From a virus (lineage: Duplodnaviria; Heunggongvirae; Uroviricota; Caudoviricetes): a stretch of DNA of 64,000 nt. The position numbers and the translations under genes were made by a program. The DNA lies in IMG/VR virus record IMGVR_UViG_3300046692_000385. One strand, written 5' to 3'. Below, piece by piece: positions 3,686 to 59,244 of this stretch. The notes below the pieces were generated by a model. The model made no database searches, had not been told where the DNA came from, and saw only the letters and a program-made list of their open reading frames with translations. Position 1 is the first letter of the stretch, and every line of letters starts with the position of its first letter.

Positions 3686-3701
3686 TAGTCAGTAATGACT
3701 A
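3686..3701. promoter_or_regulatory. palindromic motif TAGTCAGTAATGACTA
   Basis: Intergenic; ~50 nt upstream of ATG 3641; flanked by GTTAAACGC direct repeats. Confidence 0.5.
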
Positions 3702-3741
3702 ATGACGCAATGTTAAACGCTCAAGCTTGGGCTTGCAATGC

Positions 3742-4569
3742 TCACTTCGCTTGGATCAGCGTATTGCCGGTCTGCCCGATAATCATCGTGCAGTGCTGAT
3801 TCCCGGCGCAGGCTTGCAGCGCTTGGTTGTATTCGTGCTGCAGGAAGGCTGGCGTGAGGGTTTTCTGGAGCTCGTCATTGGCATGCGCCTGACCTTCGGC
3901 CTTGATGCGGCTGATGTTGGCGTCGCGCAACGCAACGGTCGCTTCCTTGTCCTTTTGCGCGATCTGTTGGTCAGCAAGGACTGTTGCTCGAATGGACGCA
4001 TCGATCGAGGGGTCGGTCATGATCTTGCGCACCACGACGCGCGTCACCACGAATGTGCCCTTTACGGCCGGATCGGCATCGAGGAGCTTTTGCGTCTGGT
4101 CCTTGATCGCCAATTCGAGCTCCGTGCGGTTCTGGTTCAGCGTCAGGCTGTCGAAGTCCTTCACGGAGTCGTAGATGGCACCCCGACTCAGGTTCGACAC
4201 CAGGTTGTAGCCGGGTCGAGCGAAGCCCTCGTGCTCGAATCTGGCGGACTGACCGGCATGTGAGGAGACGAACTTGGCGATCGTGCCCGGGACGCCGCGG
4301 TAGTAGACCGTGACTTCCAGATCCTTGACTGTGAGCTTGTCTTTGGCGCGCGGGGTGAGGTCGTTCAGGTCGATCGACGTCTCCTTGACCGTGTATTCGT
4401 CCACGTGCGAGAAGACAGCCAGATAGACGCCCTGGCCCTCTTCCTGTTGGGAGACGTCGCCCATCGTGGTGCGCACGCCGACCGAGCCAGTTTCAATGAT
4501 GCCGCCACAGCCCGAGAGGCCAAAGCACAGTGCGAGCGCAGCCAGTGCGCCGGAAATGATGCGTTTCAT
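3742..4569 (-). CDS. putative lipoprotein
   Basis: Signal peptide plus lipobox LSGC (MKRIISGALAALALCFGLSGCGG). Confidence 0.55.
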   Translation of the reverse strand: MKRIISGALAALALCFGLSGCGGIIETGSVGVRTTMGDVSQQEEGQGVYLAVFSHVDEYTVKETSIDLNDLTPRAKDKLTVKDLEVTVYYRGVPGTIAKFVSSHAGQSARFEHEGFARPGYNLVSNLSRGAIYDSVKDFDSLTLNQNRTELELAIKDQTQKLLDADPAVKGTFVVTRVVVRKIMTDPSIDASIRATVLADQQIAQKDKEATVALRDANISRIKAEGQAHANDELQKTLTPAFLQHEYNQALQACAGNQHCTMIIGQTGNTLIQAK

Positions 4570-4586
4570 GCTGGTGTTGTTCCTTG

Positions 4587-4784
4587 TTAGTGGCGTTCGA
4601 CCGCGATGATGAAAGCCAGAGTCGCCACGGTCAGGGCGATTGAGGCGAAAATCAGAATGCTTCGAAGCAGGATGCGACGCTGCCGCTGGCGGTCCGCGAA
4701 ATACGGGGTGGTCGTGGCGACCACACCGAGCACGTAAAGGCCGCAGGCGAGCAGCACCGCGACCATGAAGGCGCGGGCAAGCAT
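4587..4784 (-). CDS. small membrane protein
   Basis: 65 aa, two hydrophobic segments. Confidence 0.35.
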   Translation of the reverse strand: MLARAFMVAVLLACGLYVLGVVATTTPYFADRQRQRRILLRSILIFASIALTVATLAFIIAVERH

Positions 4785-4787
4785 GGC

Positions 4788-5147
4788 TTAGGATTCAGCG
4801 AGTTCTTCGACCTGGATGCCGGCCGCTTGCTCGGGCACCTCGCCCGAACCCGGCAGCGTCGGCTCGTCGGCGATCGTCTTGGCTGCGCGCTGCGGCAACA
4901 GGGCGCGGATCGCATCGGCGTTGTGGGTGACGAATTGAGCGAGTTCGCCGAACGTGATTTCGATCAGGTGCTCGCGCGCCGTCTCGCCGGTGTCGGTGAG
5001 TGCGCCATAGGGGCGGACCTTCTCGTCGACCAATACAACCAGCGCATCGATGCGATCCAATTCCTTCTGGTGCGCCTGCGCATCCTTCTTGTCGGTGAAG
5101 ATTTGGCCGTCGGTGGTTTCGTAGCTCGCTACGCGCTTGATTTTCAT
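4788..5147 (-). CDS. hypothetical protein (start MKIKRVASYE)
   Basis: ATG at 5147 with GAAGGAG RBS; ORF-track N-terminus comes from a GTG that reads through the upstream palindrome motif. Confidence 0.5.
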   Translation of the reverse strand: MKIKRVASYETTDGQIFTDKKDAQAHQKELDRIDALVVLVDEKVRPYGALTDTGETAREHLIEITFGELAQFVTHNADAIRALLPQRAAKTIADEPTLPGSGEVPEQAAGIQVEELAES

Positions 5148-5173
5148 GTGTTGCTCCTTCGTCTTGTGAGTGT

Positions 5174-5189
5174 TAATCAGTTTTGACTG
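5174..5189. promoter_or_regulatory. motif TAATCAGTTTTGACTG
   Basis: Intergenic, 27 nt upstream of ATG 5147. Confidence 0.5.
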
Positions 5190-5249
5190 TGCTATTTTCA
5201 CAGCAAAATCATGGGGTTACAGCGGGAGAACGTGTGCCCTCCACTCTCC

Positions 5250-5669
5250 TTAAAACGGAATCAGATCGTCCTCGTCTTTCACGAACCGACTGTTGGCCGT
5301 GTAGACCGCTTTGTATGCCCTCTTGGCCGCCCCGCACGCCCGGAAGAACCTGTCCGTGCGCGTGAAAGCTGCCGTGCGCAGGGCATACCACCGCTGGCGG
5401 AACCAACGCGTGCTGCCAAAGCGCAGCAACTCGTTGTCGATCCACTCCATCGCCTCTGTGTAGTCGTAGCGGTTGATGTGCGCGGGAAGCCTTCCTTGCC
5501 ACACGATTTCTACCGGACGCGTCTCCTTCGTGTAGTGGACGGTCAGATCACGGCCGCGAAGCGTGAAGTCCCAGGCGCCGTTGATGACCGTGCCCTCGAT
5601 GGCGCCGTCCGTCTCCTTGCACTCGCAAAGCAGGCTGACGGTGCGGTTCGAACCGATGGCGATCAGCAT
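5250..5669 (-). CDS. hypothetical protein with SSB-like C-terminal tip (..DEDDLIPF)
   Basis: 139-aa ORF; last 8 residues mimic the bacterial SSB C-terminal acidic tip DDDIPF. Confidence 0.5.
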   Translation of the reverse strand: MLIAIGSNRTVSLLCECKETDGAIEGTVINGAWDFTLRGRDLTVHYTKETRPVEIVWQGRLPAHINRYDYTEAMEWIDNELLRFGSTRWFRQRWYALRTAAFTRTDRFFRACGAAKRAYKAVYTANSRFVKDEDDLIPF

Positions 5670-5884
5670 GGGTCAACCATGTCCGCGTGCAGCATGAACA
5701 TATCGATCAGGGGTTGGTCGACGTCGATCGCCCAGATCGGCGCTCTGGGATGGCCCATGTTTTCGACGCCGGTGATGCGCATGTCTTGCGACTGGCGAAT
5801 TGCTTCGGCGCTCGTGAGGTGCAGATCGGCGTAACCGCGGTCATTAAGGCGCACGCGCTGCCCGACTGTAGGCTTGGTGTTCAT
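5663..5884 (-). CDS. hypothetical protein (start MNTKPTVGQR)
   Basis: Internal ATG at 5884 with GAGG RBS. Confidence 0.4.
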   Translation of the reverse strand: MNTKPTVGQRVRLNDRGYADLHLTSAEAIRQSQDMRITGVENMGHPRAPIWAIDVDQPLIDMFMLHADMVDPC

Positions 5885-5891
5885 GTCGGCC

Positions 5892-6368
5892 TCAATACAA
5901 GAGGTTGCTGCGATGATGACGCGCGTCCAGCAGCAGCCCGCGACCAACCTTCGGGTCGAACGGCTCGTCGTATTCCTGGAACAGTCGCAGCACGCGGCGC
6001 TTGAAAAGCTTCTTGCCGGACATGCCCTTGATCTGCTCGCCGCTCAACTCGCTGTCCTTGTAGCCACAGCCATGCCCCTCGAACAGATCGCCCTCCAGGT
6101 GATTCAACTGGAAGAATTGGCGCAGTGCGGTAAAGCCGTATTGTCGGTAGGTTGCCGATTCACACATCGGCTGACCATTCCACTCCGCCGGCTTCAGGCC
6201 GCGCTCGTTCATCGCCGGGTGCATCGCGAGCCAGCCGCCCGCACAGGCGATCGTGCCGCAGCTCGGGCCCGCGCCCTTCGTGCGCCACATGTCGAGATCG
6301 AAGGCACGCTTGGGAATGCCGTCGATGATGGCGAACGCGTCGCGCAGCAGTTCAAAATTCGGTCGCAT
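5892..6368 (-). CDS. hypothetical protein
   Basis: 158-aa ORF in operon. Confidence 0.5.
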   Translation of the reverse strand: MRPNFELLRDAFAIIDGIPKRAFDLDMWRTKGAGPSCGTIACAGGWLAMHPAMNERGLKPAEWNGQPMCESATYRQYGFTALRQFFQLNHLEGDLFEGHGCGYKDSELSGEQIKGMSGKKLFKRRVLRLFQEYDEPFDPKVGRGLLLDARHHRSNLLY

Positions 6369-7156
6369 TATGCACCCTCCTTCACTCGACGCACGGCGGC
6401 CCAGAGGACGTTCTTCACCATGTCGTAGGACACGTCCGGGTCTTTCACCTGCACGCGCGTCGTCTCACGGCTGTCGGGGTTGAAGACCAGAAAGCCGCGC
6501 GCCAGCTTCATTTTGGTGTCGCCGCTGTCGATCATGTTGCGGCCGACCTGCTTGATGATCGAGTGGCCGATCGGAGGCAGAACGTCCAGGTTGTAATGCA
6601 CCAGGTCGTAGTAGAGCTGGAACACATATTCGCGGTCTGCACCGCCCAGCACGCGCGCCACAGCAGCGAGCTTCATGGGCGCAGCCGAGAAGAACTTGTT
6701 GCAGGCGCCACACCGGGCGATCAGTTCAGCCGCCGTGTCACCGATTGCCGCATTCATGCGCTCCAGCTCCTTCGGCGTCACACGGCTGCTACCGCTCAGC
6801 ACGCGGGCTGCGAGGCGCACCACTTCCGCCTGGCGCGGTTGAATGCGAAGGATGTCGCTCGCGGTGCGGCGCGTTCCCTGGTCGAGCACGGCAAAGCTCT
6901 CTGATGGCGCATCGAAGGTCACGTTCATCGCGACCGGCATGTTTGCCGCGACGATTGCCTCGAGGCGGTGCTGGCCGTCCAGAACATTGCCGCCGGTGTC
7001 GAACGCGATCCCCTGATGCGTCTTCAGGAACTCGCCCCGAGTGATAGCATCCGCCAGATCCTTCACGTGACCGCGGCGAAGCGGGCGATTGCCGATGTTT
7101 GCCTTGAGATATTCCTTCGCCATGACGGGCGTAATTACCATTTCACGCGTGTTCAA
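6368..7156 (-). CDS. ParB/Srx-like nuclease-domain protein
   Basis: N-terminal GNRPLRRGHVKDL...IAFDTGGNVLDGQHRLEAI matches ParB N-terminal / sulfiredoxin fold (DGQHR motif). Confidence 0.6.
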   Translation of the reverse strand: MNTREMVITPVMAKEYLKANIGNRPLRRGHVKDLADAITRGEFLKTHQGIAFDTGGNVLDGQHRLEAIVAANMPVAMNVTFDAPSESFAVLDQGTRRTASDILRIQPRQAEVVRLAARVLSGSSRVTPKELERMNAAIGDTAAELIARCGACNKFFSAAPMKLAAVARVLGGADREYVFQLYYDLVHYNLDVLPPIGHSIIKQVGRNMIDSGDTKMKLARGFLVFNPDSRETTRVQVKDPDVSYDMVKNVLWAAVRRVKEGA

Positions 7157-7173
7157 GTCACTCTCCAGTGTGG

Positions 7174-7596
7174 TCAGATTTCACGAAAACTTTTGGCTTC
7201 GAGCGCCTTGCCCACGCTCGCAAACCAGTCCTGCGCCTCTTTCGCGGTGTCGAACTCTCGCACCGCCCTCTTGCCGCCAAAGCGGCCCATCCAAACCTGC
7301 TCCGCTCCCACCGTCCACGTGACTGTGGTGAGCGCCGACCCATCGGAAAACGAGCGCTTCATCTCCAGCGGCTCTGTCGGACAGAGCGCCTGCGCCTCGC
7401 TGATCAGGTCGATAAAATCCTTCTTCAAGAGCCCCGAAACCGTCATGAAAAGCACGTCGATTCCGGTGCTGAATTGGTGCGGGGTCAGGCGCCCCTGCGA
7501 CACCGCATACGTGAGCCATTCGAGCGTCTCAAACGCCTTGCGGTCGATCTCTTCCTGGAGAGTGGGTAACTCAGTTCTGACTAATTTAGCCGACAT
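7174..7596 (-). CDS. hypothetical protein (start MSAKLVRTEL)
   Basis: ATG at 7596 with GAGGGAAAA RBS; codons 4-9 contain a second motif copy. Confidence 0.45.
   Translation of the reverse strand: MSAKLVRTELPTLQEEIDRKAFETLEWLTYAVSQGRLTPHQFSTGIDVLFMTVSGLLKKDFIDLISEAQALCPTEPLEMKRSFSDGSALTTVTWTVGAEQVWMGRFGGKRAVREFDTAKEAQDWFASVGKALEAKSFREI
7569..7583. promoter_or_regulatory. motif ACTCAGTTCTGACTA (within codons 4-9 of 7174..7596)
   Basis: Second copy of pair with 7670 site. Confidence 0.4.
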
Positions 7597-7669
7597 GCTG
7601 CTTTTCCCTCTTCTCGTCTCGCGCAACGCTGCGCACAAACTGAATATTACAGATCGAAGCTAGGGAAGA

Positions 7670-7685
7670 CAATCAGTTTTGACTG
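7670..7685. promoter_or_regulatory. motif CAATCAGTTTTGACTG inside 34-bp extended palindrome CTAGGGAA...TTCCCTAG
   Basis: Followed on coding strand by TTGTCT-N17-TAATAT. Confidence 0.5.
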
Positions 7686-7710
7686 TTCCCTAGCTTTTTC
7701 CCAACAGACT

Positions 7711-8346
7711 TCAGTGCAACAACAGCCCTTCCGTGCGCTCGGCCTGGATGATTTGCATGGTGCGAGCCTGAGCCCGACCCACCGCAAACTCGATCGCCTC
7801 GACCCGTTCGTTGACCGAGAGGGTCTTGCGCGGGATGTAGAAGTGGATCGGCTTTACCCGCTCATCAGCCGTCAGCCCCAGGCAGATCGAGTTGAGTTGC
7901 TCCATGTAGGCCGCATTCGCCACCGCCTTGCCCTCCTCCGCGACGATCGGAATACCGGGCTGAACCAGCACCAGCACGCCAAACCGCCTGTTGGTCACTT
8001 CGATGCACCGTTGCACGTAGTGCGCGAACCGCTCCTGATCCTCCGGCGCGACTCGATCGCCATACGCTTCAGCCATCGTGTAGGCCAGCATGTCGATGGG
8101 GCTTCTATCGGTAACAAAATCCTCGCCGGCACACTCCGCGTAGATGGCATCGATCCGCGTCAGGATGCGCTCCTGATGGTCGAGCCGCTCCGCGAAGCTG
8201 TGCTCCTTCGACAAGTCAAAGCCAAACTCCTTGTTGATGGCGCTGACCGACGTTTCGAGGAATCTCGCGCCCGACTTCAGCGCATACGCCTTCGCGAGCG
8301 TTGTCTTGCCCGTTCTATGAGCGCCGACGAGAGAAAGCGCTGTCAT
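7711..8346 (-). CDS. P-loop kinase, probable (deoxy)nucleoside/nucleotide kinase
   Basis: Walker A GAHRTGKTTLAK and later DRSPID segment reminiscent of dNK/dNMP kinases. Confidence 0.5.
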   Translation of the reverse strand: MTALSLVGAHRTGKTTLAKAYALKSGARFLETSVSAINKEFGFDLSKEHSFAERLDHQERILTRIDAIYAECAGEDFVTDRSPIDMLAYTMAEAYGDRVAPEDQERFAHYVQRCIEVTNRRFGVLVLVQPGIPIVAEEGKAVANAAYMEQLNSICLGLTADERVKPIHFYIPRKTLSVNERVEAIEFAVGRAQARTMQIIQAERTEGLLLH

Positions 8347-9014
8347 GCTGCCTTCGTTTCGTCGTTGGCAGCCGGCGCCACGTCGATCACGTCGCCTTCG
8401 AGGACCGCGCGCTCCTTCGCCAGATCACGGTTTTCGTGCTGTGCGTCGTAGGCGCTGAACTTCTCCGGGAAGCGGGCGCGGAGCTTCGCGATGTTCTTCG
8501 CGCGAATGTCGTCCAGGTCAGCGCCGGCCGCATCGACGCCCACCGCCGTATACCACTGCATGTCGCCCAGTTCTTCGGCAAAGTTCACCGGATCGAACTT
8601 GCCCGTCTCCAGCGCGATCAAGAGCGCTTCGAGCGCCTCGCCCGACTCCGTGAAGAGGCCCACACCGGCGTGCAGCAGACGCGGGTTGAGGTTGCTCAGC
8701 TTCGCACGCAGGATGCCCACCGGCACTTGCGCGTCGCTTGGCAGCGAATCCGCGTCGAGCGGGTTGTCGAGCTGGCCCGCCTGGTTGTGGCTGAAGAGGA
8801 AGTTTGCGGTGCCGGCGATCTGCTGCAGCATGGCTGCGACTTCTTCCTGGTTCAGCGGCGTGCCGTAGTAAATCTTGCGCTTCGCACGGTCGAGCAGCTT
8901 GGACGTGACGACTGCGAGCGACAGGACCGCGTGCAGGCCGACGGTTCCAAAAGCGATGTGTGCCGGACGCGATTCGGTCGAGATGGCTTGGTCGACGTAT
9001 TCTTTCGAGTTCAT
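8343..9014 (-). CDS. mazG: MazG-like nucleotide pyrophosphohydrolase
   Basis: Start MNSKEYVDQ at 9014 with AAGGAGAAA RBS; ESGEALEALLIA...DMQWY...DAAGADLDDIRAKNIAKLRARFPE typical of MazG/NTP-PPase fold. Confidence 0.65.
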   Translation of the reverse strand: MNSKEYVDQAISTESRPAHIAFGTVGLHAVLSLAVVTSKLLDRAKRKIYYGTPLNQEEVAAMLQQIAGTANFLFSHNQAGQLDNPLDADSLPSDAQVPVGILRAKLSNLNPRLLHAGVGLFTESGEALEALLIALETGKFDPVNFAEELGDMQWYTAVGVDAAGADLDDIRAKNIAKLRARFPEKFSAYDAQHENRDLAKERAVLEGDVIDVAPAANDETKAA

Positions 9015-9055
9015 GGGGTGTTTCTCCTTACGGTTGAGGTAAAAGGGTTGAGTAA

Positions 9056-9232
9056 TCAGCCGAACGTCGCCTGGGTGACGACGCCCTTCTTGATGGAAAG
9101 GTTGCAGCGGTTGTGGTTGACGTCGGCGGTCATCATGTATTTCACGCCGTTCTTCTCCACGATCCGCCACGTGTGCAGCTTTTCGGTCAGAAGCTTGGTG
9201 GCTTCCTCCAGCGTCAGTCCGATGAGCTTCAT
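9056..9232 (-). CDS. hypothetical small protein (start MKLIGLTLEE)
   Basis: ATGA overlap with thyX stop. Confidence 0.35.
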   Translation of the reverse strand: MKLIGLTLEEATKLLTEKLHTWRIVEKNGVKYMMTADVNHNRCNLSIKKGVVTQATFG

Positions 9233-10077
9233 GCGGCCGCTCCAAAGACTTCGTGCTCGACGCGCTCGCGCCACTGACGCCAACCGCGGAAGTTCTTGCT
9301 TTGGGCCGTCGCCAGCCGCATCGGATAGCCCTGGTGCTCGGTCGGTGAGGCATGCAGCGGCCGCGAGCCCACGAGGCGCTCGTAGAGCCCCAGATCCTTC
9401 TCGATCACCGGGTTCGCGCCGTCATGCGTCAGATAGGATGTGCGTGCGCAGCGTGCGCCGGACGCCTTAGCCAACAGCTCGGGCTGCTCGCGGTGGAAGT
9501 AGCGCTCCTCCATTGCCACGTAGGGCAGATGCCAGTTCATCGCGTCGGTGCGATCGAGGATGCGCAGCGTCGGTTCGGAATGATCCATCGCCACGCGTAT
9601 CTGCTTTGCCAACTGCTCGATCTCCGGCTGTGCGTCCGGGTGGTCGCGCAGTTCAAAGAAGTTCGCCCACTCGGTGGCGGTGACGACGAGGCTGATGTGA
9701 CCGAACCATTCGGTCGGGCGGTTCGCCCACTGCTTGTGCAGGCCGAGCTCCGACAGTTCGATTGCACCGGCCGCGCACACTTCGGCCATGTTTCGCCAGA
9801 TCGCCTGAGCGCGCGCCAGCTTCTCGCCTTCGAGGTTCTGCTCCGACGCCTGCATGCCCGGCTGATTCAGACCCCACCGCAGCGGCTCGACCATCTCCCG
9901 CAGCGAGGCGCTGACGAGCTTTGCCACCGGCATTGCGCGGCTGCTCGATCCGTTGCGACTCTTGTCCCGATGGGTCATAAAGTCGGCATGCACCATGCGC
10001 GGATACTTCAGTTGCAGCGTCGTGAGGCGTGCGCCTGCTTCGCTGATGGAGTCTTCGATGACTTTCGCTTCGATCAT
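9229..10077 (-). CDS. thyX: flavin-dependent thymidylate synthase ThyX
   Basis: ThyX-like motifs incl. HRDKSRNGSSSRA (RHR-x7-S signature region). Confidence 0.7.
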   Translation of the reverse strand: MIEAKVIEDSISEAGARLTTLQLKYPRMVHADFMTHRDKSRNGSSSRAMPVAKLVSASLREMVEPLRWGLNQPGMQASEQNLEGEKLARAQAIWRNMAEVCAAGAIELSELGLHKQWANRPTEWFGHISLVVTATEWANFFELRDHPDAQPEIEQLAKQIRVAMDHSEPTLRILDRTDAMNWHLPYVAMEERYFHREQPELLAKASGARCARTSYLTHDGANPVIEKDLGLYERLVGSRPLHASPTEHQGYPMRLATAQSKNFRGWRQWRERVEHEVFGAAA

Positions 10078-10079
10078 GC

Positions 10080-10601
10080 TTAGCGACCCCGACCGTAGCT
10101 GCCGTAACCGCGGCTGCTGGTTGCGATGGAGCTCGTCTTGCCGTAGCCGCCGTAGCCGCTCGTCGTGGCTGTGGGCTTCGGTGCCGCTGCGACGCCAAGC
10201 GGGCGCGACTGGAACGCCGGCGCGGGCTTGGCGACGACTGCCGGCGCCGGTGTCGGTTGCACGTAGGTCTTGTTGATCGTCACGTTCTTGGTGACGTTCG
10301 TCGTGGCGGGCGCGGGGCTGTTCACGTAGTGGTGCTCGACGCGCGAACCGCCACCGCCCATGCCGCTCAGCATGTGCCCCGCCAGCAAGCCAGTGAGGAA
10401 GCCGTCATGTGCCGGTGCCTGGTTCACGATCACGGGCGCTGCTGCGACCGGTGCCGGTGCGTAAGCGGGCGCGGCTGCGACGACTTGCTGCTGCGGTGCG
10501 TAGGCGTAATCCGGGGTGCGACGCGAGCACGAGGCGATGATGCACAGCACGGCGATTCCACCGCCGACGGCGAGCGCGATCTTTTTCTGGTTGGGTGTCA
10601 T
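10080..10601 (-). CDS. putative lipoprotein, Ala/Pro-rich with glycine-zipper C-terminus
   Basis: Start MTPNQKKIALAVGGGIAVLCIIASC (lipobox) at 10601 with GAGGAAC RBS; alternative upstream ATG at 10655 would place a GC hairpin inside the CDS. Confidence 0.5.
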   Translation of the reverse strand: MTPNQKKIALAVGGGIAVLCIIASCSRRTPDYAYAPQQQVVAAAPAYAPAPVAAAPVIVNQAPAHDGFLTGLLAGHMLSGMGGGGSRVEHHYVNSPAPATTNVTKNVTINKTYVQPTPAPAVVAKPAPAFQSRPLGVAAAPKPTATTSGYGGYGKTSSIATSSRGYGSYGRGR

Positions 10602-10625
10602 GGGTTCCTCAAGTGGGATCAAAAC

Positions 10626-10646
10626 GCCCCGATCACCGACCGGGGC
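10626..10646 (-). other. GC-rich hairpin + U-tract in 5' leader (attenuator or terminator-like)
   Basis: GCCCCGG-ucggugau-CGGGGC followed by GUUUUGAU on minus strand, 25 nt downstream of motif+TATAAT. Confidence 0.4.
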
Positions 10647-10672
10647 AAACTGCATTTCAGATACTTATATTA

Positions 10673-10688
10673 TAGTCAGTTTTGACTA
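10673..10688. promoter_or_regulatory. motif TAGTCAGTTTTGACTA fused to TATAAT
   Basis: Minus strand reads AGTCAAAACTGACTATAAT. Confidence 0.55.
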
Positions 10689-10913
10689 ATACTGACCGGC
10701 TGTTTTAGACCGGGTATTGCTGATCCAGTCCGACCACGTTGCTCCACCAGTTCGCCTGCACCTTGACGAGCGCGAGTGCGGCCGGCGTGCCAAGACCCAG
10801 AAGCTTCAGGTAGGCGAACTGCAGCTCGGCGCCGGCACGAATCATCTTGAGGGCCTGCCGGTGGTGAACCGTGTCGGTCCGATCGGGGCTGTCGAGTCGA
10901 TTGGCGGTCATCG

Positions 10914-11906
10914 TCACTCCCAGTCGTCGAGCGTGCCGACGGCGTAGTCGCCGACCTTCGCCTCGAAGAAGTTGGACTCCTCGCCTTCTGAGAACTTCTT
11001 GAACCACGGCACCGGGTTCTTCACGCCCGGATAGAGCGGCGCCAATCCAATGTCTGCCGCGTGCTCGTTGGCCGTTGCCTGCAGGAAGCCCGTGATGATC
11101 GGCGCGGTCACGCCAAGCACGCCCTTGCTCACGATGTAGCCGCCCCACTTGCCTTCCAGATCCACCGCGTCGCGCAACAAGAAGTCGGCGTCCTGCCAGA
11201 ACTTGGCGTCGTAAAGCTCGGGCCGCTCCTGCATCATCGTCTTGTGCATCTGCTTGAACAGGCCCAAGTGCGTGCGCTCGTCGCGGTGAATCAATTTCAC
11301 GCTGTCAGCGCTGCCAGTCATCTTTCCGTTGCGTGCGAGCGCATAGAAGACAAGGAACGCGCTGTAGAAGTAGATCCCTTCGAGCGCAATGTTTGCCACG
11401 ATGGAGCGAGCAAACTGGGCCGGAGTCTTGTCGCCCGCCAGGATTCGGCTCTGCGCGAGGATGTGCTCGTTCTTGGCCGCCAGCATGCCGTCTTTTTCGA
11501 AGCGCATGTAGACCGACATCGGGTCGGCCGAAACCGTCTCGACCATTTCGCTGTAGGCATCGACGTGCAGCGCCTCTTCATACATCTGGCGTTTGATGCA
11601 CATCTCCACTTCCGGCGACGTGATGCACGCCTCGATGTTCGAGAGGCTGTGAAGCTGGATGCCGTCGAGGTTCGAGGCGAACGAGAGCGCGCTGTCGTAG
11701 GCGAAGCGTTCGCCCTCGGTGAGCCGCGTGCGGTAGCAGGGACCGTCCTCGGTCAGATCGGTTTCGTGGAGATCCCAGTTGTTGCTTTTCATCTGCTTCC
11801 AGATGTCGCGCGCCCACTTGTGCTTTGCAGGCGAGATCGCCATCAGGTCCGACTTCGGGCCGAACGCCAGGCGCCGGTCGTTGATGATTTGGGCGTAGTT
11901 GCTCAT
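10914..11906 (-). CDS. nrdB: ribonucleotide reductase class I beta subunit
   Basis: Start MSNYAQIIND at 11906; ferritin-like EExxH segments (EMVETV...HRDERTH), adjacent to nrdA. Confidence 0.75.
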   Translation of the reverse strand: MSNYAQIINDRRLAFGPKSDLMAISPAKHKWARDIWKQMKSNNWDLHETDLTEDGPCYRTRLTEGERFAYDSALSFASNLDGIQLHSLSNIEACITSPEVEMCIKRQMYEEALHVDAYSEMVETVSADPMSVYMRFEKDGMLAAKNEHILAQSRILAGDKTPAQFARSIVANIALEGIYFYSAFLVFYALARNGKMTGSADSVKLIHRDERTHLGLFKQMHKTMMQERPELYDAKFWQDADFLLRDAVDLEGKWGGYIVSKGVLGVTAPIITGFLQATANEHAADIGLAPLYPGVKNPVPWFKKFSEGEESNFFEAKVGDYAVGTLDDWE

Positions 11907-12178
11907 GCCACGTCTCCGGCGGTCGGCTGCATACGGAACACGCTCATTGCGTTCTGCGCCTTGATGCCGTGATCGAACCCGGCGCGGCCGTAGAAAATCA
12001 GTGCATCGCACATTTCATCGAGCCAGGAGGCGGGCATCGTCACCATCTGGTCGGGGTCGCGCACGACCGGGGCCGGCGCCTTCGGAACAGGCATGATCGG
12101 CATCGCCGGAATCGGCACGGGTGCGGCGGGTGCGCTCGCAGCTTGGCGCGGGCGGAATTGCAGAACTTCAGCGGACAT
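11903..12178 (-). CDS. hypothetical Pro/Ala-rich small protein between nrdA and nrdB
   Basis: 91 aa, AGGAGAAA RBS, ATGA overlap with nrdB. Confidence 0.4.
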   Translation of the reverse strand: MSAEVLQFRPRQAASAPAAPVPIPAMPIMPVPKAPAPVVRDPDQMVTMPASWLDEMCDALIFYGRAGFDHGIKAQNAMSVFRMQPTAGDVA

Positions 12179-12189
12179 GGTTTCTCCTG

Positions 12190-12216
12190 GGAAAACTCCC
12201 CGCACGTGGCGGGGAG
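12190..12216 (-). terminator. rho-independent terminator / 5' leader hairpin after nrdA
   Basis: Perfect 8-bp stem CUCCCCGC-CACGU-GCGGGGAG followed by UUUU on minus strand. Confidence 0.55.
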
Positions 12217-12217
12217 A

Positions 12218-12233
12218 TAGTCAGTTTTGACTG
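12218..12233. promoter_or_regulatory. motif TAGTCAGTTTTGACTG between nrdA stop and hairpin
   Basis: Immediately 5' of 8-bp GC hairpin. Confidence 0.5.
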
Positions 12234-12238
12234 TTTTG

Positions 12239-14509: not shown

Positions 14510-14548
14510 ATTGACCTTCTCGTTTCGGTTGGCGGGTTGAGGATGATA

Positions 14549-14563
14549 AATCAGTTCTGACTG
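14549..14563. promoter_or_regulatory. motif AATCAGTTCTGACTG upstream of nrdA
   Basis: ~40 nt upstream of ATG 14509; TATCAT 3 nt after motif on coding strand. Confidence 0.5.
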
Positions 14564-14584
14564 TCGTTCTATATGAGCCGGCGA

Positions 14585-15079: not shown

Positions 15080-15091
15080 GTTGCTCTCCGG

Positions 15092-15106
15092 GGTCAAAAC
15101 TGACTA
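15092..15106. promoter_or_regulatory. motif copy A (GGTCAAAACTGACTA) of inverted pair
   Basis: Overlaps RBS region of 14585..15079. Confidence 0.5.
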
Positions 15107-15117: not shown

Positions 15118-15133
15118 TAGTCAGTTTTGACTG
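15118..15133. promoter_or_regulatory. motif copy B TAGTCAGTTTTGACTG fused to TATAAT
   Basis: Minus strand CAGTCAAAACTGACTATAATATGCAC then second inverted copy. Confidence 0.55.
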
Positions 15134-20159: not shown

Positions 20160-20175
20160 TAGTCACTTTTGACTC
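20160..20175. promoter_or_regulatory. motif TAGTCACTTTTGACTC abutting sbcD RBS
   Basis: GAGTCAAAAGTGACTAAGGAGAAAGAATG on minus strand. Confidence 0.45.
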
Positions 20176-20626: not shown

Positions 20627-20642
20627 CAGTCAGGGATGACTG
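20627..20642. promoter_or_regulatory. motif CAGTCAGGGATGACTG + extended -10 TGTATAAT
   Basis: 7 nt spacing to TGTATAAT upstream of SleB-like gene. Confidence 0.55.
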
Positions 20643-22438: not shown

Positions 22439-22458
22439 CTTAGTCAGGGCCGACTAAG
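22439..22458. promoter_or_regulatory. variant palindrome CTTAGTC-AGGGCC-GACTAAG plus extra half-site GACTAAG at 22417
   Basis: Same TAGTC-N6-GACTA spacing as main motif. Confidence 0.45.
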
Positions 22459-23552: not shown

Positions 23553-23568
23553 TACTCAATTTTGACTG
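23553..23568. promoter_or_regulatory. motif TACTCAATTTTGACTG forming the whole FEN/recA spacer
   Basis: TAA-CAGTCAAAATTGAGTA-ATG on minus strand. Confidence 0.45.
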
Positions 23569-25986: not shown

Positions 25987-26002
25987 TAGTCAGGATTGAC
26001 TA
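25987..26002. promoter_or_regulatory. motif TAGTCAGGATTGACTA fused to TATAAT
   Basis: Minus strand TTAGTCAATCCTGACTATAAT. Confidence 0.55.
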
Positions 26003-27272: not shown

Positions 27273-27288
27273 TAGTCAGTTTTGACTG
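27273..27288. promoter_or_regulatory. motif TAGTCAGTTTTGACTG 9 nt after dnaE stop
   Basis: Upstream of 26020..27204. Confidence 0.5.
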
Positions 27289-33391: not shown

Positions 33392-33407
33392 TAGTCAGTA
33401 ATGACTG
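33392..33407. promoter_or_regulatory. motif TAGTCAGTAATGACTG inside 38-bp extended palindrome TTCGGGAAC...GTTCCCGAA
   Basis: Upstream of CobS-like gene. Confidence 0.5.
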
Positions 33408-35432: not shown

Positions 35433-35447
35433 TGTCAATAGTGACTG
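35433..35447. promoter_or_regulatory. variant motif TGTCAATAGTGACTG (operator-position copy)
   Basis: Lies after candidate -10 TAGAAT upstream of CobT-like gene. Confidence 0.4.
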
Positions 35448-35486: not shown

Positions 35487-35502
35487 CAGTCATTATTGAC
35501 TA
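35487..35502. promoter_or_regulatory. motif CAGTCATTATTGACTA abutting TTGCAC-N17-TAGAAT
   Basis: Candidate sigma-70-like promoter for CobT-like gene. Confidence 0.5.
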
Positions 35503-35839: not shown

Positions 35840-35855
35840 TAGTCAGTGCTGACTA
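35840..35855. promoter_or_regulatory. perfect-arm motif TAGTCAGTGCTGACTA in divergent regulatory region
   Basis: First of a cluster of AGTCAG / CTGACT half-sites (35840-36065) ending with TGACTAGCTATAAT before HTH gene 36073. Confidence 0.5.
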
Positions 35856-36072
35856 TTTTTCACACAATTTATCGTCTTTTCTTAGCCACGCGGGATTGCG
35901 CGGTCGGTAAAAATGTATAGAATCCAAGACATAGGGAGTGTTCGTCAGTGCTGACACACGGGTATAGACGAGCGCCGTCCCACCAAGTCAGTCAATGATT
36001 ACTATCTGACTAGCTATAATCGATTCGAACAGAGTTACCGGGGCCGTCCCGCAGTCAGATAAGGAGAAAAAC

Positions 36073-43635: not shown

Positions 43636-44300
43636 GCCGCCACCTGCTGGATCGGGTGTGCACCGTCGAGCCCGAGCACGCGCGCCTTGATGACGCGCAC
43701 GACCGAATCCTCGTTGTCGCGGTTGAAGACCGGCACGTAGACGTCAATGTCCTCGCCGCCGGCGACCTTTGCCCAGTGCTGCTCGGTCGTGAGCATCTCC
43801 TTCATGCGACCGGCATAGTTCTTCACCACCGCGGCCGCTGCTGCCGGGTCTTTGTGGATCATCGCTTCGGCGATGTCGATGCCCGCACGCTTGAGAAATC
43901 GCTCGGCGATGACTTCAGGCGGATTGTCCACGTAGACCGAGACGTGCGGCACGTCGTTCTTCTTGGCCCACTCCCTGATCTGGCGCATACCGATCGGCTC
44001 GCAGACGAGCACGACGTCACTGCCGTCCACGAACGCCTGGCGCGCTTCCTTCTCGGTCAGGCCGTAGTGGTTGCTGCCGAACTTCACGTGCTCGATGAAG
44101 GCGCCCTGCGCTTCGAGACGCTTGAACTGGCTGCCATCCACGAAGTGATAGTTCTTGCCGTCGACCTCGCCCGTGCGCGGAGTGCGGGTCGTGGTGCTGA
44201 TGAGAGCCGCAAATCCCTCGCCGCGCAGCAAGCCTTCGAGGGTCGTTTTGCCCGAGCATGTCGGGCCAGTGAGGGTGACAATCGTGCGCTTAGTCAGCAT
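43632..44300 (-). CDS. guanylate-kinase-like nucleotide kinase
   Basis: GPTCSGKTTL P-loop and TTRTPRTGEVDGKNYHFV; start codon embedded in motif copy. Confidence 0.6.
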   Translation of the reverse strand: MLTKRTIVTLTGPTCSGKTTLEGLLRGEGFAALISTTTRTPRTGEVDGKNYHFVDGSQFKRLEAQGAFIEHVKFGSNHYGLTEKEARQAFVDGSDVVLVCEPIGMRQIREWAKKNDVPHVSVYVDNPPEVIAERFLKRAGIDIAEAMIHKDPAAAAAVVKNYAGRMKEMLTTEQHWAKVAGGEDIDVYVPVFNRDNEDSVVRVIKARVLGLDGAHPIQQVAA

Positions 44301-44508
44301 TGACTTTCTCCTGCGGCGCCACTTTGAGCGCCAGTTTGTTCGTGATGACCTCCAGGAAGCGGCACATCGTGATCAGGTCCACCTCCTGGTTCTGGTTGTT
44401 GACGACGACGATGCGCCCGCCGATCATGCCGGGCCCGGCCGGCAGAATGTGGTGCCGCCAGGGCATCGTCGCTTGCAGCGCCTTGAATTCCTTCTCATCC
44501 ATTTCCAT
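44290..44508 (-). CDS. hypothetical small protein
   Basis: 72 aa. Confidence 0.3.
   Translation of the reverse strand: MEMDEKEFKALQATMPWRHHILPAGPGMIGGRIVVVNNQNQEVDLITMCRFLEVITNKLALKVAPQEKVNAD
44291..44305. promoter_or_regulatory. motif TAGTCAGCATTGACT overlapping gmk-like start codon
   Basis: GGAGAAAGTCAATGCTGACTAAG on minus strand. Confidence 0.4.
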
Positions 44509-47807: not shown

Positions 47808-47823
47808 TAGTCAGTTTTGACTA
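47808..47823. promoter_or_regulatory. motif TAGTCAGTTTTGACTA fused to TACAAT
   Basis: Minus strand TGACTACAAT. Confidence 0.55.
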
Positions 47824-51011: not shown

Positions 51012-51027
51012 TAGTCAGTTTTGACTA
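51012..51027. promoter_or_regulatory. motif TAGTCAGTTTTGACTA fused to TATAAT (contains stop codon of 51025..51783)
   Basis: Minus strand CATTAGTCAAAACTGACTATAATG; upstream of Hfq-like gene. Confidence 0.55.
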
Positions 51028-52990: not shown

Positions 52991-53005
52991 ACTCAGTTTT
53001 GACTG
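52991..53005. promoter_or_regulatory. motif ACTCAGTTTTGACTG followed by TAATAAT
   Basis: Upstream of phoH. Confidence 0.5.
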
Positions 53006-55160: not shown

Positions 55161-55175
55161 AGTCAGGTTTGACTA
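55161..55175. promoter_or_regulatory. motif AGTCAGGTTTGACTA
   Basis: Upstream of Gly-rich fibre gene. Confidence 0.45.
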
Positions 55176-55660: not shown

Positions 55661-55674
55661 AGTCAGTTTTGACT
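55661..55674. promoter_or_regulatory. motif inside perfect 10-bp-arm palindrome GAAACAGTCA-GTTT-TGACTGTTTC
   Basis: Stop codon of upstream gene lies in first arm; TATATT follows 4 nt after on coding strand. Confidence 0.5.
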
Positions 55675-57858: not shown

Positions 57859-58406
57859 GCCGCGCGCCCTCCGAGAAAGAGCTTTGCTTCGGCCTGGCGG
57901 CGACGCAGCAGACCCGCGATGTGCTGGCCGCCTGCCATGTCCCACTTCTCGAACTCGTGCGCCGCACCCATGTCGTCGCCCGAATTGAGGCGCTTGAGGA
58001 GCGTCGAGCCCGCGAAGTTTCCCGCGCCGATGTTGAACACCAGGTCCACCAGCGCGTCGAACTCGTCCTGCGTCAAGCCGTCTTGCTGCTTGGCGATGAT
58101 CACGAGGCGGTTGACGGCCGCGACCGCCCCTGCCACGTCAGCGATCAGTTGCGCGTCAATCTGGTCGTCGGTCCAGACGAGCCCGTATTTGACTTCGGGG
58201 CCGGTGTGACCGACGCCGATGGTCCAGGGTGCGCCCGAGAGCTTGAGCAGAGCCGAGGCGATCACGCCCGTCTTGAGCGCGTTCTGCCACATGCCAAGGC
58301 GTTGCAGCTCTTTGCCAAGCGGGGATGCGGGATCGGGATAGGCGAATTTGTAGCGCCCCTCGAACTGCGAGGTGAGCGCGATGCCGGATTTGGAATATTG
58401 CATCAT
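57855..58406 (-). CDS. endolysin, GH24 lysozyme
   Basis: SQFEGRYKFAYPD ... WTIGVGHTG catalytic-Glu region of T4/lambda-R-type lysozymes. Confidence 0.75.
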   Translation of the reverse strand: MMQYSKSGIALTSQFEGRYKFAYPDPASPLGKELQRLGMWQNALKTGVIASALLKLSGAPWTIGVGHTGPEVKYGLVWTDDQIDAQLIADVAGAVAAVNRLVIIAKQQDGLTQDEFDALVDLVFNIGAGNFAGSTLLKRLNSGDDMGAAHEFEKWDMAGGQHIAGLLRRRQAEAKLFLGGRAA

Positions 58407-58408
58407 GG

Positions 58409-58807
58409 TCAGTGCGCCACGAACTTGACGATGCCGACCAGAGCGCCGCTGCCGATGAGACCGCCGAGGATCGTGTAGACCACCTTCAGCGTGCCCGCCA
58501 TGCCCTTCACGGTCGCGACGTGCTCGATGTTGGTTTCGTTGAGCTTCGTGACGGCTTTGTTCGTTTCGACCAGGCGATCTTCGAGTTTCTCAACCCGCAT
58601 CTGAGTCGCCTGATGACGCTCCTCGAGAATGGCGAGTTTGGTGATGGCTGTCGCGATTTGCGAGAGCGCCCCTTTGATTTCGCCGACGTCGCGCTGGACG
58701 TCGTTGACTTGTTGCTCCAATGCGCCAAGATCAACAGGCATGTCATCGTTCCCAATCGTCACTACGAAATTCCCCTTGTCTGTCTCTTGCAAAGGCCAAG
58801 CCGGCAT
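58409..58807 (-). CDS. coiled-coil protein with C-terminal TM anchor (holin/antiholin candidate)
   Basis: C-terminal VVYTILGGLIGSGALVGIV; first gene of lysis cassette after paired motif copies. Confidence 0.4.
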   Translation of the reverse strand: MPAWPLQETDKGNFVVTIGNDDMPVDLGALEQQVNDVQRDVGEIKGALSQIATAITKLAILEERHQATQMRVEKLEDRLVETNKAVTKLNETNIEHVATVKGMAGTLKVVYTILGGLIGSGALVGIVKFVAH

Positions 58808-58811
58808 GATA

Positions 58812-58825
58812 AGTCAAAACTGACT
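58812..58825. promoter_or_regulatory. motif copy A (AGTCAAAACTGACT) of inverted pair
   Basis: Abuts start of lysis-cassette first gene. Confidence 0.5.
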
Positions 58826-58833
58826 GTGGGTAA

Positions 58834-58848
58834 AGTCAGTTTTGACTA
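58834..58848. promoter_or_regulatory. motif copy B AGTCAGTTTTGACTA
   Basis: 8 nt from copy A, opposite orientation. Confidence 0.5.
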
Positions 58849-58872
58849 TCGGTTCAACGACTTGGGACCGCC

Positions 58873-59205
58873 TTACTCGACGATCTCGCCGCCCGCCAGC
58901 ATGTAGCGGCTCGCCTGATACGGCATCGTCACCACCGCGCTCGAATCCCCTTCCGGTTCCGGCTTGATGAGCTCCTGCTCGACGAACGCAAAGCCGTCCT
59001 GGCCGTCTGCCGGGAAGCCTTGAATCGAGACCGGCTGCGGGAACGAGACCGGCTGCTTGCCTGCCTTGAAGGTCTCTGCCGAGACGTAGCTCACGACCGT
59101 GGCTGTGACGAACTTGTTCATGCGATCGAGGCTCACGCTCGACACGTAGTGGTAGGCGGCGACGCCGCCGGTGGTGTCGAGGGTGATCTCTTTTGCGATT
59201 GCCAT
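58873..59205 (-). CDS. hypothetical protein
   Basis: 110 aa, CAGGAG RBS. Confidence 0.4.
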   Translation of the reverse strand: MAIAKEITLDTTGGVAAYHYVSSVSLDRMNKFVTATVVSYVSAETFKAGKQPVSFPQPVSIQGFPADGQDGFAFVEQELIKPEPEGDSSAVVTMPYQASRYMLAGGEIVE

Positions 59206-59228
59206 GTCAAAACTCCTGATGGAATGAA

Positions 59229-59244
59229 TAGTCAGTTCTGAGTG
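59229..59244. promoter_or_regulatory. variant motif TAGTCAGTTCTGAGTG
   Basis: 22 nt upstream of ATG 59205. Confidence 0.45.

Follow-up and report, generated by a model that had tools for sequence, protein, structure and literature searches.

The stretch of DNA analysed here (64,000 nucleotides, hereafter the window) comes from a plasmid-like temperate phage, a phage-plasmid of ~110 kb whose relatives include RHEph10, nickie and the Acinetobacter "AB group". It covers the part with genes for replication, plasmid maintenance, fibres and lysis. The G+C content of the window was computed as ~61%, and not 65% as previously given. Distributed over the window is a palindrome of 14–16 bp with the core AGTCA-N4-TGACT, or in its wider form (Y)AGT(C/A)A-N4-T(G/T)ACT(R). 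Copies were scored by the ten half-site bases AGTCA/TGACT, with a cut-off of at least 9/10, and are presented with the features linked to them in Table 1.

Table 1 Motif copies and HTH genes in the window. Offsets run from the first core base to the -10-like hexamer; centres are relative to the predicted transcription start.
Feature	Coordinates	Strand	Linked features
Motif copy, 10/10 half-site	3687..3700	-	extra 8-bp flanking inverted repeat TTGCGTCA/TGACGCAA
Motif copy, 9/10	5175..5188	-	gene strand reads AGTCAAAACTGATT; ATG 27 nt further on
Motif copy, 9/10	7569..7582	-	inside 5' end of gene
Motif copy	7671..7684	-	-10-like TAATAT, offset 35 (centre ~-40.5); 11-bp flanking arms
Motif copy	10674..10687	-	fused to TATAAT, offset 13 (centre -18.5), with an intrinsic terminator at 10625-10647 downstream
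Motif copy	12219..12232	-	after nrdA stop; terminator hairpin CTCCCCGC..GCGGGGAGTTTT directly next
Motif copy	14549..14562	-	upstream of nrdA; TATCAT, offset 14
Motif copy, inverted partner	15092..15105	+	~+3 to +16 of 15119 promoter
Motif copy	15119..15132	-	fused to TATAAT, offset 13
Motif copy	20161..20174	-	abuts SD (AAGGAG) of Mre11/SbcD-like gene; no in-register -10; stoperator-like position
Motif copy	20628..20641	-	TATAAT, offset 22 (centre -27.5); register kept in orthologous sites
Motif copy, 9/10	22442..22455	-	TAAGAT, offset 13
Motif copy	23554..23567	-	entire gap between exonuclease-like and RecA-like genes
Motif copy	25988..26001	-	fused to TATAAT; orthologous promoter in many relatives, conserved leader GCTGAAACGA
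Motif copy	27274..27287	-	after dnaE; TATCAT, offset 36 (centre -41.5)
Motif copy	33393..33406	-	upstream of cobS; TATCAT, offset 36; 12-bp covarying flanking arms
Motif copy	35433..35446	.	11 nt 3' of TAGAAT (-10) of cobT promoter
Motif copy	35488..35501	-	upstream in cobT promoter shared with 35433; TAGAAT, offset 38 (centre -43.5)
Motif copy	35841..35854	-	fused to TATAAT of a leftward promoter that diverges from HTH gene
Weaker motif copy	35943-35956		upstream of HTH gene at 36073
Motif copy AGTCAATGATTACT	35990..36003	+	11 nt 5' of TATAAT 36015-36020, likely HTH-gene promoter
HTH_3 protein, 140 aa	36073..36495	+	434 Cro/CI-like N-terminal domain; candidate motif binder
CI-like HTH_3 protein, 225 aa	36723..37400	-	closest relatives only; probable accessory immunity factor
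Motif copy, 10/10	44292..44305	-	guanylate-kinase gene ATG in motif centre
Motif copy	47809..47822	-	TACAAT, offset 13
Motif copy	51013..51026	-	fused to TATAAT; 5' of Hfq-like/DnaB genes
Motif copy	52991..53004	-	upstream of phoH-like gene; AATAAT, offset 14
Motif copy	55161..55174	-	upstream of 53338-55101 gene, adjoining fibre-related genes (Gp77/Gp80 families); no in-register -10
Motif copy	55661..55674	-	upstream of Gp80-like fibre gene; TATATT, offset 23
Motif copy	58812..58825	+	overlaps TATCAT (offset 14), the lysis cassette promoter
Motif copy, second	58834..58847	-	22 bp upstream of 58812; centre -41.5 of lysis cassette promoter
Motif copy, 9/10	59230..59243	-	3' of a TATAAT (offset -18), i.e. 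~+7 to +20

Thirty-one sites in the window reached the cut-off, and 27 of them lie within non-coding DNA, which by our gene map makes up 9.7% of the window. The original prediction had held that at least 28 copies, almost all between genes, recur beyond chance, and this is borne out. The motif is present at all 28 listed positions, although about ten coordinates were off by 1–2 nt (those shifted include 7569, 15092, 22439, 52991, 55161, 55661, 58812 and 58834), and the commonest 16-mer, TAGTCAGTTTTGACTA, gave 27 matches at up to three mismatches versus 0.05 expected, with a maximum of one match in any shuffle. The strict form TAGTC-N6-GACTA occurs seven times versus 0.00 expected. The two exceptions, 7569 within a gene and 44292 around a start codon, are as described. 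The list itself was incomplete, as it lacked AGTCAATGATTACT at 35990 and the weaker copy at 35943, both 5' of the 36073 HTH gene, and the distance from motif to start codon, previously given as 13–50 nt, is wider by our gene calls (~7–134 nt). About 24 of the ~30 genuine lytic-side intergenic gaps hold a copy, while no copy is found at any of the three plasmid genes (parA, the trfA-like rep and the CI-like gene). The motif centre is oriented, reading AAAC in the gene direction in most window copies and GTTT in three (15092, 35433 and 58812), each of which partners a nearby forward copy. A symmetric dimer does not explain this oriented centre of the window lineage.

Over 411 sites, -10-like hexamers are found at offsets 13 (59 sites), 14 (14 sites), 22 (15 sites) and 36 (30 sites), as counted from the first core base, with a background of 0–2 at other offsets. 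Four discrete registers can be recognized, with the motif centred at about -18.5, -27.5 or -41.5 or lying just downstream of the start, and 20 of 28 window sites fall in these registers or 11–13 nt downstream of a -10. The site of a DNA-binding protein proposed originally stands, while the freely variable geometry invoked for it does not; with such discrete registers, the site looks like an integral operator of the core promoters and not like one of loose placement. Downstream of the start are 15092 (~+3 to +16), 35433 (~+5) and 59230 (~+7), and paired copies flank a single promoter in three cases (15119/15092, 58834/58812 and 35488/35433), placements that resemble those of a repressor. Copies 20161, 23554 and 44292 are found in gaps without promoter features. 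In the largest promoter class (class A, with the site fused to TATAAT), neither a -35 hexamer at usable spacing (16–18 bp) nor a TGn was found, and a promoter scan of bases 1–20000 returned no gene-strand promoter-like site at any motif copy.

An inverted repeat can also act as a nucleic-acid hairpin, here either an RNA stem-loop for termination, processing or protein binding, or, as in N4-type promoters, a hairpin extruded from the DNA. The gene-directed centre in the window and the closeness of copies to preceding stop codons are in keeping with a hairpin, as is a subset of copies (33393, 7671, 3687 and their orthologues) with flanking arms of 8–12 bp that covary between lineages and give hairpins of -22 to -23 kcal/mol. 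Such arms are, however, missing from other sites, those of class A among them (best arm 4.0 on average versus 3.9 shuffled), the bare motif hairpin reaches ~-5 kcal/mol with no U-tract, three copies are inverted and the centre is free in relatives, with AAAC in just 15 of 382 sites. At the orthologous site upstream of cobS in ~60 relatives, AGTAA..TGACT and AGTCA..TTACT are common, so that a change at position 4 or 11 goes uncompensated. The half-sites thus degrade independently, as is expected without a base-pairing constraint, and we consider a hairpin highly improbable. The high copy number and inverted-repeat form would also suit relics of a selfish repeated element, whether MITE-like or not, an outcome named beforehand as contrary to a regulon. 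The conserved unit is, however, just ~18 bp, flank information content beyond it is zero, no terminal repeats or target duplications were found around the copies, and orthologous copies occupy the same promoter in relatives of 50–89% DnaE identity; the probability of such an origin is close to nil. As the half-sites vary independently and nothing is conserved outside ~18 bp, the motif is, judged from its sequence, a predicted site for a dimeric protein, and not a hairpin or a MITE.

Both HTH proteins of the window had been put forward as possible binders. Sequence comparison leaves the 36073 protein as the conserved candidate of the two: its gene is syntenic and divergent from the cobT operon in 40 of 40 IMG/VR loci with a tblastn match, and its recognition helix is strongly conserved. 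The CI-like 36723 gene, in contrast, was found in the seven closest relatives only, and its product is probably an accessory factor. In structural superposition, 434 Cro, 434 repressor and P22 C2 fit the N-terminal domain of the 36073 protein with an rmsd of 1.3–1.8 Å over ~65 residues; the C-terminal half is modelled at low confidence and gave no specific structural match. In the window (35990) as in A. baumannii (12873, with TATATA directly attached), the HTH gene's own promoter carries motif copies. At least three sites per 23 kb are present in 36 of 48 loci with the HTH gene; no site is present in the five loci that lack a full-length homologue, three of which give only weak profile hits to longer HTH proteins. 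It should be noted that three loci have the motif with no HTH homologue detected within the 10 kb covered, and that one locus (L100) has the homologue and no motif.

In many of ~80 uncultivated relatives in IMG/VR, with DnaE identity down to ~50% and G+C of 48–63%, no 5-mer palindrome ranks above the same core. It was found in elements from Paraburkholderia, Massilia and Methylocystis, with the variants AGTAA/TTACT in Halomonas and AATCA/TGATT in Roseospira and Phyllobacterium, and the complete A. baumannii phage-plasmid NZ_CP027608.1 has 26 copies across all lytic modules. Site and regulator recur over a large phage-plasmid family that includes A. baumannii plasmids. That elements of very different hosts share the motif could mean that the phage-plasmid exploits a host transcription factor. 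These hosts, however, span three proteobacterial classes (Alpha-, Beta- and Gammaproteobacteria), and the lineage variants, which follow the element and not the host class, coincide with substitutions in the HTH protein of the phage (M46 to L in 6 of 9 AGTAA lineages, GDAK in AATCA lineages). Moreover, the lytic relative nickie, which lacks the HTH gene, and the Sphingomonas/Novosphingobium elements, which lack it in full length, are also without the motif. A host factor is thus quite improbable, and the independent half-sites, the intergenic placement and the conservation with the 36073 gene support the earlier proposal of a DNA-binding-protein site that defines a global operator/promoter regulon.

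On balance, we lean towards the palindrome being the operator of one phage-encoded dimeric regulator of the Cro/CI type, most likely the 36073 protein, that silences lytic promoters; here we infer both the identity of the binder and that binding amounts to repression. Nearly all lytic transcription units, with genes for replication, nucleotide metabolism, recombination, fibres and lysis, would have the operator within their core promoters or, in a few cases, in a gap between cistrons. Whether bound across the -10/spacer, at the -35 edge or over the transcribed start, the protein would keep RNA polymerase off, and a single protein might in this way hold ~25 promoters silent while the element lives as a plasmid, with the 36073 protein also controlling its own gene.

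The lack of a -35 at class A promoters may, on the other hand, imply the need for an activator, which would make the site a positive one. The palindrome might then serve a factor that replaces the missing -35 in the manner of an Lpa box, one master activator turning on all lytic promoters after induction, or a dual regulator that activates from -41.5 and represses from -18.5. Dual action by position is known for lambda CI and for R-M controller proteins. The good -10 of class A, without a -35 at 16–18 bp, and the scan of bases 1–20000 agree with a positive factor, as does the centring of class C sites at exactly -41.5. This is the classical class II activator position and counts against a pure repressor reading. 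P1 late promoters (NC_005856), which read AAGTGACTT or AAGTTACTT, 4 nt and then the -10, likewise have a small palindrome directly 5' of the -10 and no -35, and their box, AAGT(G/T)ACTT, shares GTGACT/GTTACT with the right half-site here; about 11 such promoters per genome are bound by Lpa (PMC10695390). The P1 box, however, spans 9 bp around a centre at -22, its gap being fixed at 4 nt, whereas here 14–16 bp are centred at several positions, and an Lpa homologue (PF25716) is absent from the window and the A. baumannii plasmid, the HTH protein being unrelated to Lpa. Neither the copies 3' of the start nor the pairs around a promoter are placed as an activator would be, and with a centre at -18.5 the protein occupies the contact surface of the -10/extended -10. 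Intergenic -10-like hexamers that lack an obvious -35 are, as seen by eye, found in nickie as well, so that the absence of a -35 is not tied to the palindrome. No other obvious prophage repressor is present in the A. baumannii element, and we regard a positive or dual factor as possible, if rather unlikely.

For the repressor, the best reading by analogy would be a global regulon of the P1 C1 kind. P1, too, is a temperate phage that lives as a plasmid, with one repressor whose operators are dispersed over sigma-70-type lytic promoters (Oref, Omat, Ossb, Oc4, OrepL and Olpa in its record), and its plasmid genes are outside the regulon. C1 operators are asymmetric. They are annotated as C1-bound sites of 17–18 bp, whereas the palindrome here, of 14–16 bp, would be bound by a candidate Cro/CI-type HTH protein, and P1 reaches its late genes indirectly via Lpa, whereas fibre and lysis promoters here share the site of the replication promoters. 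The stoperators of cluster A mycobacteriophages (L5 gp71 type) number more than 20 genome-wide, many in short gaps after stop codons and oriented with transcription, which recalls copies 20161, 23554 and 44292; they are, however, asymmetric 13-mers bound by a monomer through two domains in an orientation-dependent manner (PMC9283540), whereas half-sites here are symmetric and the orientation bias concerns the centre only, in the window lineage only. With R-M C proteins included, 434 Cro and the 434 and P22 C2 repressors superpose by their N-terminal domains on the 36073 protein at an rmsd of 1.3–2.8 Å and act as dimers on palindromes of 14–18 bp, repressing or activating by position, but from two to six sites at one locus as opposed to ~30 genome-wide. 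In C-boxes, which read GACT..AGTC, the half-sites found here stand in everted order.

The palindrome AGTCA-N4-TGACT is present at all 28 positions listed in the original prediction, several of them displaced by 1-2 bases, although the list was not complete, as two copies had been overlooked, one at 35990-36003 and another, weaker, at 35943-35956. The window contains 7 instances of the strict form TAGTC-N6-GACTA as compared to 0.00 expected, and the commonest 16-mer (TAGTCAAAACTGACTA) yields 27 matches with up to 3 mismatches, where 0.05 are expected. The copy number is thus far above chance, as had been claimed. The G+C content of the window is ~61% rather than the 65% previously given. Further scoring was restricted to the ten bases of the half-sites, AGTCA and TGACT, with the four middle bases left free. 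At a score of 9 of 10 or better, the window contains 31 sites, 27 of which fall in the 9.7% of the window that is non-coding according to a self-trained gene map, such that the sites are concentrated in non-coding DNA, in agreement with the intergenic placement first noticed. When only intergenic gaps of at least 35 nt are considered, a copy is found in ~24 of the ~30 genuine gaps on the lytic side and in none of the gaps of the plasmid module. The consensus in gene direction (minus strand) is AAC-AGTCA-AAAC-TGACT-AT, with no conservation beyond ~18 bp around the motif. Three copies (15092, 35433 and 58812) present a reversed centre, each being closely paired with a forward copy.

To which kind of element the motif belongs can be judged from its relatives. 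Using the DnaE protein as query, 80 related IMG/VR loci were gathered; AGTCA-N4-TGACT is the top 5-mer palindrome in many of these, down to ~50% DnaE identity and across 48-63% G+C. The AAAC centre, which is co-oriented with transcription in the window's lineage, appears in 15 of 382 sites in the relatives, where the four middle bases are free, and the oriented centre is therefore limited to the window's lineage. The reversed-sequence control for double-mismatch statistics was unusable, as the reversed pattern is the motif itself two bases over. Double-mismatch sites are mostly chance occurrences, and covariation was therefore examined on orthologous sites instead. The site upstream of cobS was traced across ~60 relatives, among which AGTAA..TGACT and AGTCA..TTACT are frequent, i.e., position 4 and its partner position 11 vary without compensation. 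A base-paired stem would not survive such changes, whereas a dimeric protein tolerating C or A would. The bare RNA hairpin of the motif reaches ~-5 kcal/mol and has no U-tract. In some lineages, both half-sites have shifted throughout, to AGTAA/TTACT in a Halomonas element and others and to AATCA/TGATT in Roseospira and Phyllobacterium elements, which is the pattern expected if a factor and its sites had evolved together. Given the uncompensated changes, the weak hairpin and the joint lineage shifts, we rejected for the core motif both an intrinsic terminator or structured RNA and a remnant of a MITE, the alternative that the original prediction had named. A MITE would span tens to hundreds of bp, end in terminal inverted repeats and be accompanied by a target-site duplication, while conservation here stops within ~18 bp. 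The uncompensated half-site changes at the orthologous cobS-upstream sites thus favor the protein-binding site that had been proposed.

The position of the sites relative to promoters was analyzed by searching for -10-like hexamers, defined as matching TATAAT in at least 5 of 6 bases, with the offset counted from the first core base. Among 411 non-redundant sites, hexamers peak at offsets 13 (n=59), 14 (n=14), 22 (n=15) and 36 (n=30) over a background of 0-2 hexamers per offset, although it should be noted that the same promoters are represented many times by orthologous copies and the counts are, therefore, not independent. With the hexamer set at -12 to -7, offsets 13 and 14 place the palindrome centre at -18.5 or -19.5, with the site fused to the -10 as TGAC-TATAAT, while offset 22 places it at -27.5 and offset 36 at -41.5, followed directly by a TTGCnT -35-like hexamer. 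In a small group of sites, the core follows the hexamer by 16-19 nt, bringing the centre to ~+10. The assignment of the window sites and the promoters carrying two copies are summarized in the table. Hexamer-less sites at 20161, 23554 and 44292 abut the Shine-Dalgarno sequence or fill the whole intergenic gap. The sites thus overlap core elements of the predicted lytic promoters.

Features of the window and of related loci (window coordinates unless a locus is named; positions relative to predicted starts)
Feature	Location	Strand	Remark
First class (offset 13 or 14)			10 window sites
Second class (offset 22 or 23)			2 window sites
Third class (offset 35 to 38)			5 window sites
Sites downstream of -10			3 window sites
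Sites without hexamer in register			8 window sites
Two-copy promoter	15119 + 15092		on -10 and ~+3 to +16
Two-copy promoter	58834 + 58812		-41.5 and -19.5; two helical turns apart
Two-copy promoter	35488 + 35433		-43.5 and ~+11
Armed sites	33378-33422, 7655-7700, 3675-3712		
Armed sites in relatives	L001 6744, L028 7092, L039 6977, L041 6468, others		
Strong intrinsic terminator	10625-10647		~21 nt downstream of TATAAT fused to the 10674 site
GCAGCA-acgt-TGCTGC palindrome	~33320-33345	minus	cobS leader; ~10 nt past predicted -10
DnaE-type polymerase + UDG domain fusion	27297-30665	minus	
Terminator of the 36073 HTH gene	36529-36553		
LexA (SOS) box aCTGTATATCCATACAGt	36586-36603		gamma/beta-proteobacterial type
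TTGGTAT repeats (tggtattttggtatctagataccttggtatcttggtatga)	37640-37700		upstream of parA
GGGTTTTGAGATA / TATCTCAAAACCC repeats	38822-39147	both	upstream of TrfA-like rep gene
GCTAGC/TAGCTAGC repeat array	L043 3270-3760		dense; adjoining parA

Terminators lie close to some of these promoters. The start predicted for the 12219 site falls within an intrinsic terminator, in its 5' arm, and the same is predicted for the A. baumannii element after nrdA and after the capsid gene; with this arrangement, upstream transcripts would stop at the terminator and new transcripts would escape it. The terminator downstream of the 10674 site is so near that transcription from this promoter would produce a very short RNA or else a leader subject to attenuation. 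A terminator scan of bases 1-20000 yielded the same counts as shuffled sequences.

The window gene content puts these promoters into context. Minus-strand genes encode a class I ribonucleotide reductase, an SbcC-like ATPase, CobT, a DnaB-like helicase, ligases, a primase, PhoH, an Hfq-like protein, an RNase T-type exonuclease, fibre proteins and a lysozyme, as well as a DnaE-type polymerase, the UDG-superfamily domain of which is C-terminal (residues 973-1071). A plasmid/immunity module at 36-42 kb contains two HTH_3 proteins, ParA, an Arc-like protein, a TrfA-like initiator and iteron-like repeats. By DnaE, the closest named phages are Rhizobium RHEph10-like phages and Pseudomonas phage nickie (42-45% identity), with SSU5 being more remote (37.6%), while the closest plasmids (58% identity) are those of the AB group, i.e., ~107-kb phage-plasmids of Acinetobacter baumannii (Pfeifer et al., PMC7969092). 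Considering gene content and relatives, the window therefore belongs to a temperate phage with a plasmid lifestyle. The best genome matches are a Paraburkholderia MAG (81%), a Betaproteobacteria MAG (69%) and Massilia (67%), and the host is probably a member of the Burkholderiales. The repeats upstream of the rep gene are probably iterons of the plasmid origin, and those upstream of parA are a candidate centromere or ParA operator. A tRNA scan of the window found no tRNA.

The whole-genome view rests on NZ_CP027608.1, a complete A. baumannii phage-plasmid of 106,967 bp and 42.6% G+C that is syntenic with the window and includes the structural module. It contains 26 motif copies with the consensus TC-AGTCAGTACTGACT, the centre of which is fully palindromic (GTAC), and at least 23 of the 26 are intergenic in the RefSeq gene table. 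Copies precede the replication genes, the portal gene and the holin and are also found after the capsid gene and within the tail module, and in the window they precede fibre and lysis genes as well. With copies at replication, structural, fibre and lysis genes, the regulon is thus not confined to a single temporal class; as judged from site placement, it comprises essentially all lytic transcription units, to the exclusion of the plasmid genes.

The candidate binder is the 140-residue Cro/CI-type HTH_3 protein encoded at 36073-36495, divergent from the cobT operon. A homologue was found by tblastn at the same position in 40 IMG/VR loci; the CI-like HTH_3 protein encoded at 36723 is present only in the seven closest relatives. 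At least 3 sites per 23 kb are present in 36 of 48 loci with a 36073-type gene, and no site is present in the five loci that lack a full-length homologue (nickie, the related locus L066 and three elements of Sphingomonas or Novosphingobium), while three loci carry sites with no homologue within the 10 kb covered. The orthologues share a near-invariant predicted recognition helix, P-N-(I/M)-(I/L)-(S/T)-M-(I/F)-K-x-G-x-T-K-x-P, and its conservation matches that of the sites. M46 is replaced by Leu in 6 of the 9 AGTAA lineages, and residues 51-52 are D-A in both AATCA lineages, so that helix changes appear to track the half-site variants; this association should be taken as suggestive only, as the lineages are not independent. 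The HTH gene also has a copy at its own predicted promoter, at 35990 in the window (11 nt before TATAAT) and at 12873 in the A. baumannii element (fused to TATATA). The N-terminal half of the modelled protein superposes on 434 Cro, 434 repressor and P22 C2 (rmsd 1.3-1.8 Å), and the C-terminal half is helical, with low confidence.

A LexA box with no obvious ORF beside it occupies the gap that separates the terminator of this gene from the CI-like gene (3' end). A small RNA or an antisense transcript with a part in induction could be expressed from it upon SOS induction.

One regulator acting on dozens of sites per temperate phage genome is a known kind of arrangement (P1 and the stoperators of cluster A mycobacteriophages). 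In the case of P1, the record lists many scattered C1 operators that overlap promoters, and the sites here are likewise scattered and promoter-overlapping. The 36073 protein may, by analogy, be a global repressor by which lytic genes would be silenced in the plasmid state, as by C1 in P1. We lean slightly towards such a repressor, because copies lie on the -10, past the start and in pairs around promoters, and because our search of the A. baumannii element revealed no other obvious prophage repressor. Stoperators are asymmetric 13-mers that are bound by a monomer in an orientation-dependent manner (PMC9283540). In contrast, the site described here consists of two half-sites of 5-6 bp related by two-fold symmetry, and identity with stoperators was rejected on the basis of this symmetry and of the fully palindromic A. 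baumannii centre.

That the palindrome-binding protein instead has an activating or dual role is, in our view, rather unlikely, but the fused class needs to be considered in this respect. These sites have no -35 hexamer at usable spacing (TTGnnn at 22 bp is slightly in excess, yet this stems from a few orthologous sites beside stop codons), and a sigma-70 consensus scan of bases 1-20000 revealed no gene-strand promoter-like site at any motif copy, such that these promoters might need the help of an activator. P1 offers a precedent, as its late promoters, bound by the activator Lpa (PMC10695390), read in the P1 record as AAGTGACTT or AAGTTACTT, four bases and then the -10, and this box includes the GT(G/T)ACT of the right half-site here. 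However, when every ORF of the window and of NZ_CP027608.1 was compared with P1 Lpa by phmmer, no homologue emerged (best E = 0.6), and none of the 53 window proteins scanned against Pfam matched PF25716. The registers differ as well: the Lpa box is 9 bp long, fixed at 4 nt from the -10 and centred at -22, whereas the gap between core and -10 here is mainly -1, 0, 8 or 22 nt, with 4-5 nt found only in a minor group. Identity with Lpa-type late promoters was thus rejected. Moreover, nickie, which contains neither the motif nor the HTH gene, still shows, by eye, -10-like hexamers without an evident -35.

Flanking arms of 8-12 bp are found in the -41.5 class and in no other site class. The arm pairs differ by lineage yet remain complementary (GTTCGGGAAC/GTTCCCGAAC, CGTAGGGAT/ATCCCTACG and CCCGTCAGG/CCTGACGGG), and the armed sites fold into hairpins of ~-22 kcal/mol without a U-tract. 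It is conceivable, although unlikely, that a Cro/CI-fold master activator or position-dependent dual regulator replaces the -35 contact, with the arm hairpins adding a second layer of control. If true, this would be a Cro/CI-fold analogue of Lpa that acts from a -10-fused site on every lytic promoter and has been conserved among phage-plasmids from three classes of proteobacteria. The second palindrome in the cobS leader is preserved at orthologous positions in many of the related loci, where it may form a structure in the RNA or serve as a further operator.

Our search of the accessible literature on the family, the plasmids and the motif sequence found no description of the motif. This family of phage-plasmids is common among bacteria of soil and water as well as in clinical A. 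baumannii, and the interest of the motif lies in its breadth over three proteobacterial classes and its presence in clinical A. baumannii plasmids. One 14-16 bp operator at ~25-30 promoters and a single HTH protein, small and conserved, make a testable model of a lysis-lysogeny switch, which also supplies a map of predicted promoters for ~100 genomes. The AGTCA, AGTAA and AATCA lineages offer a natural system for following how a transcription factor drifts along with its many dozens of binding sites.

Other repeats were seen in the related loci. The GCTAGC repeats of locus L043 were considered as an alternative operator and rejected, as they form a local array adjoining parA, probably a centromere or iteron array. 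Many intergenic regions of nickie (L087, covering 30001-80000 of the phage) present a style of their own, namely CCCCA, ~10 nt and then a -10-like hexamer, which forms the loop of a GC-rich inverted repeat with arms that vary by site (e.g., GCGCGCTTG-TACAAT-GCAAGCGCG). A weaker form of this style is found in the window at 27220-27250, around the -10 downstream of dnaE.
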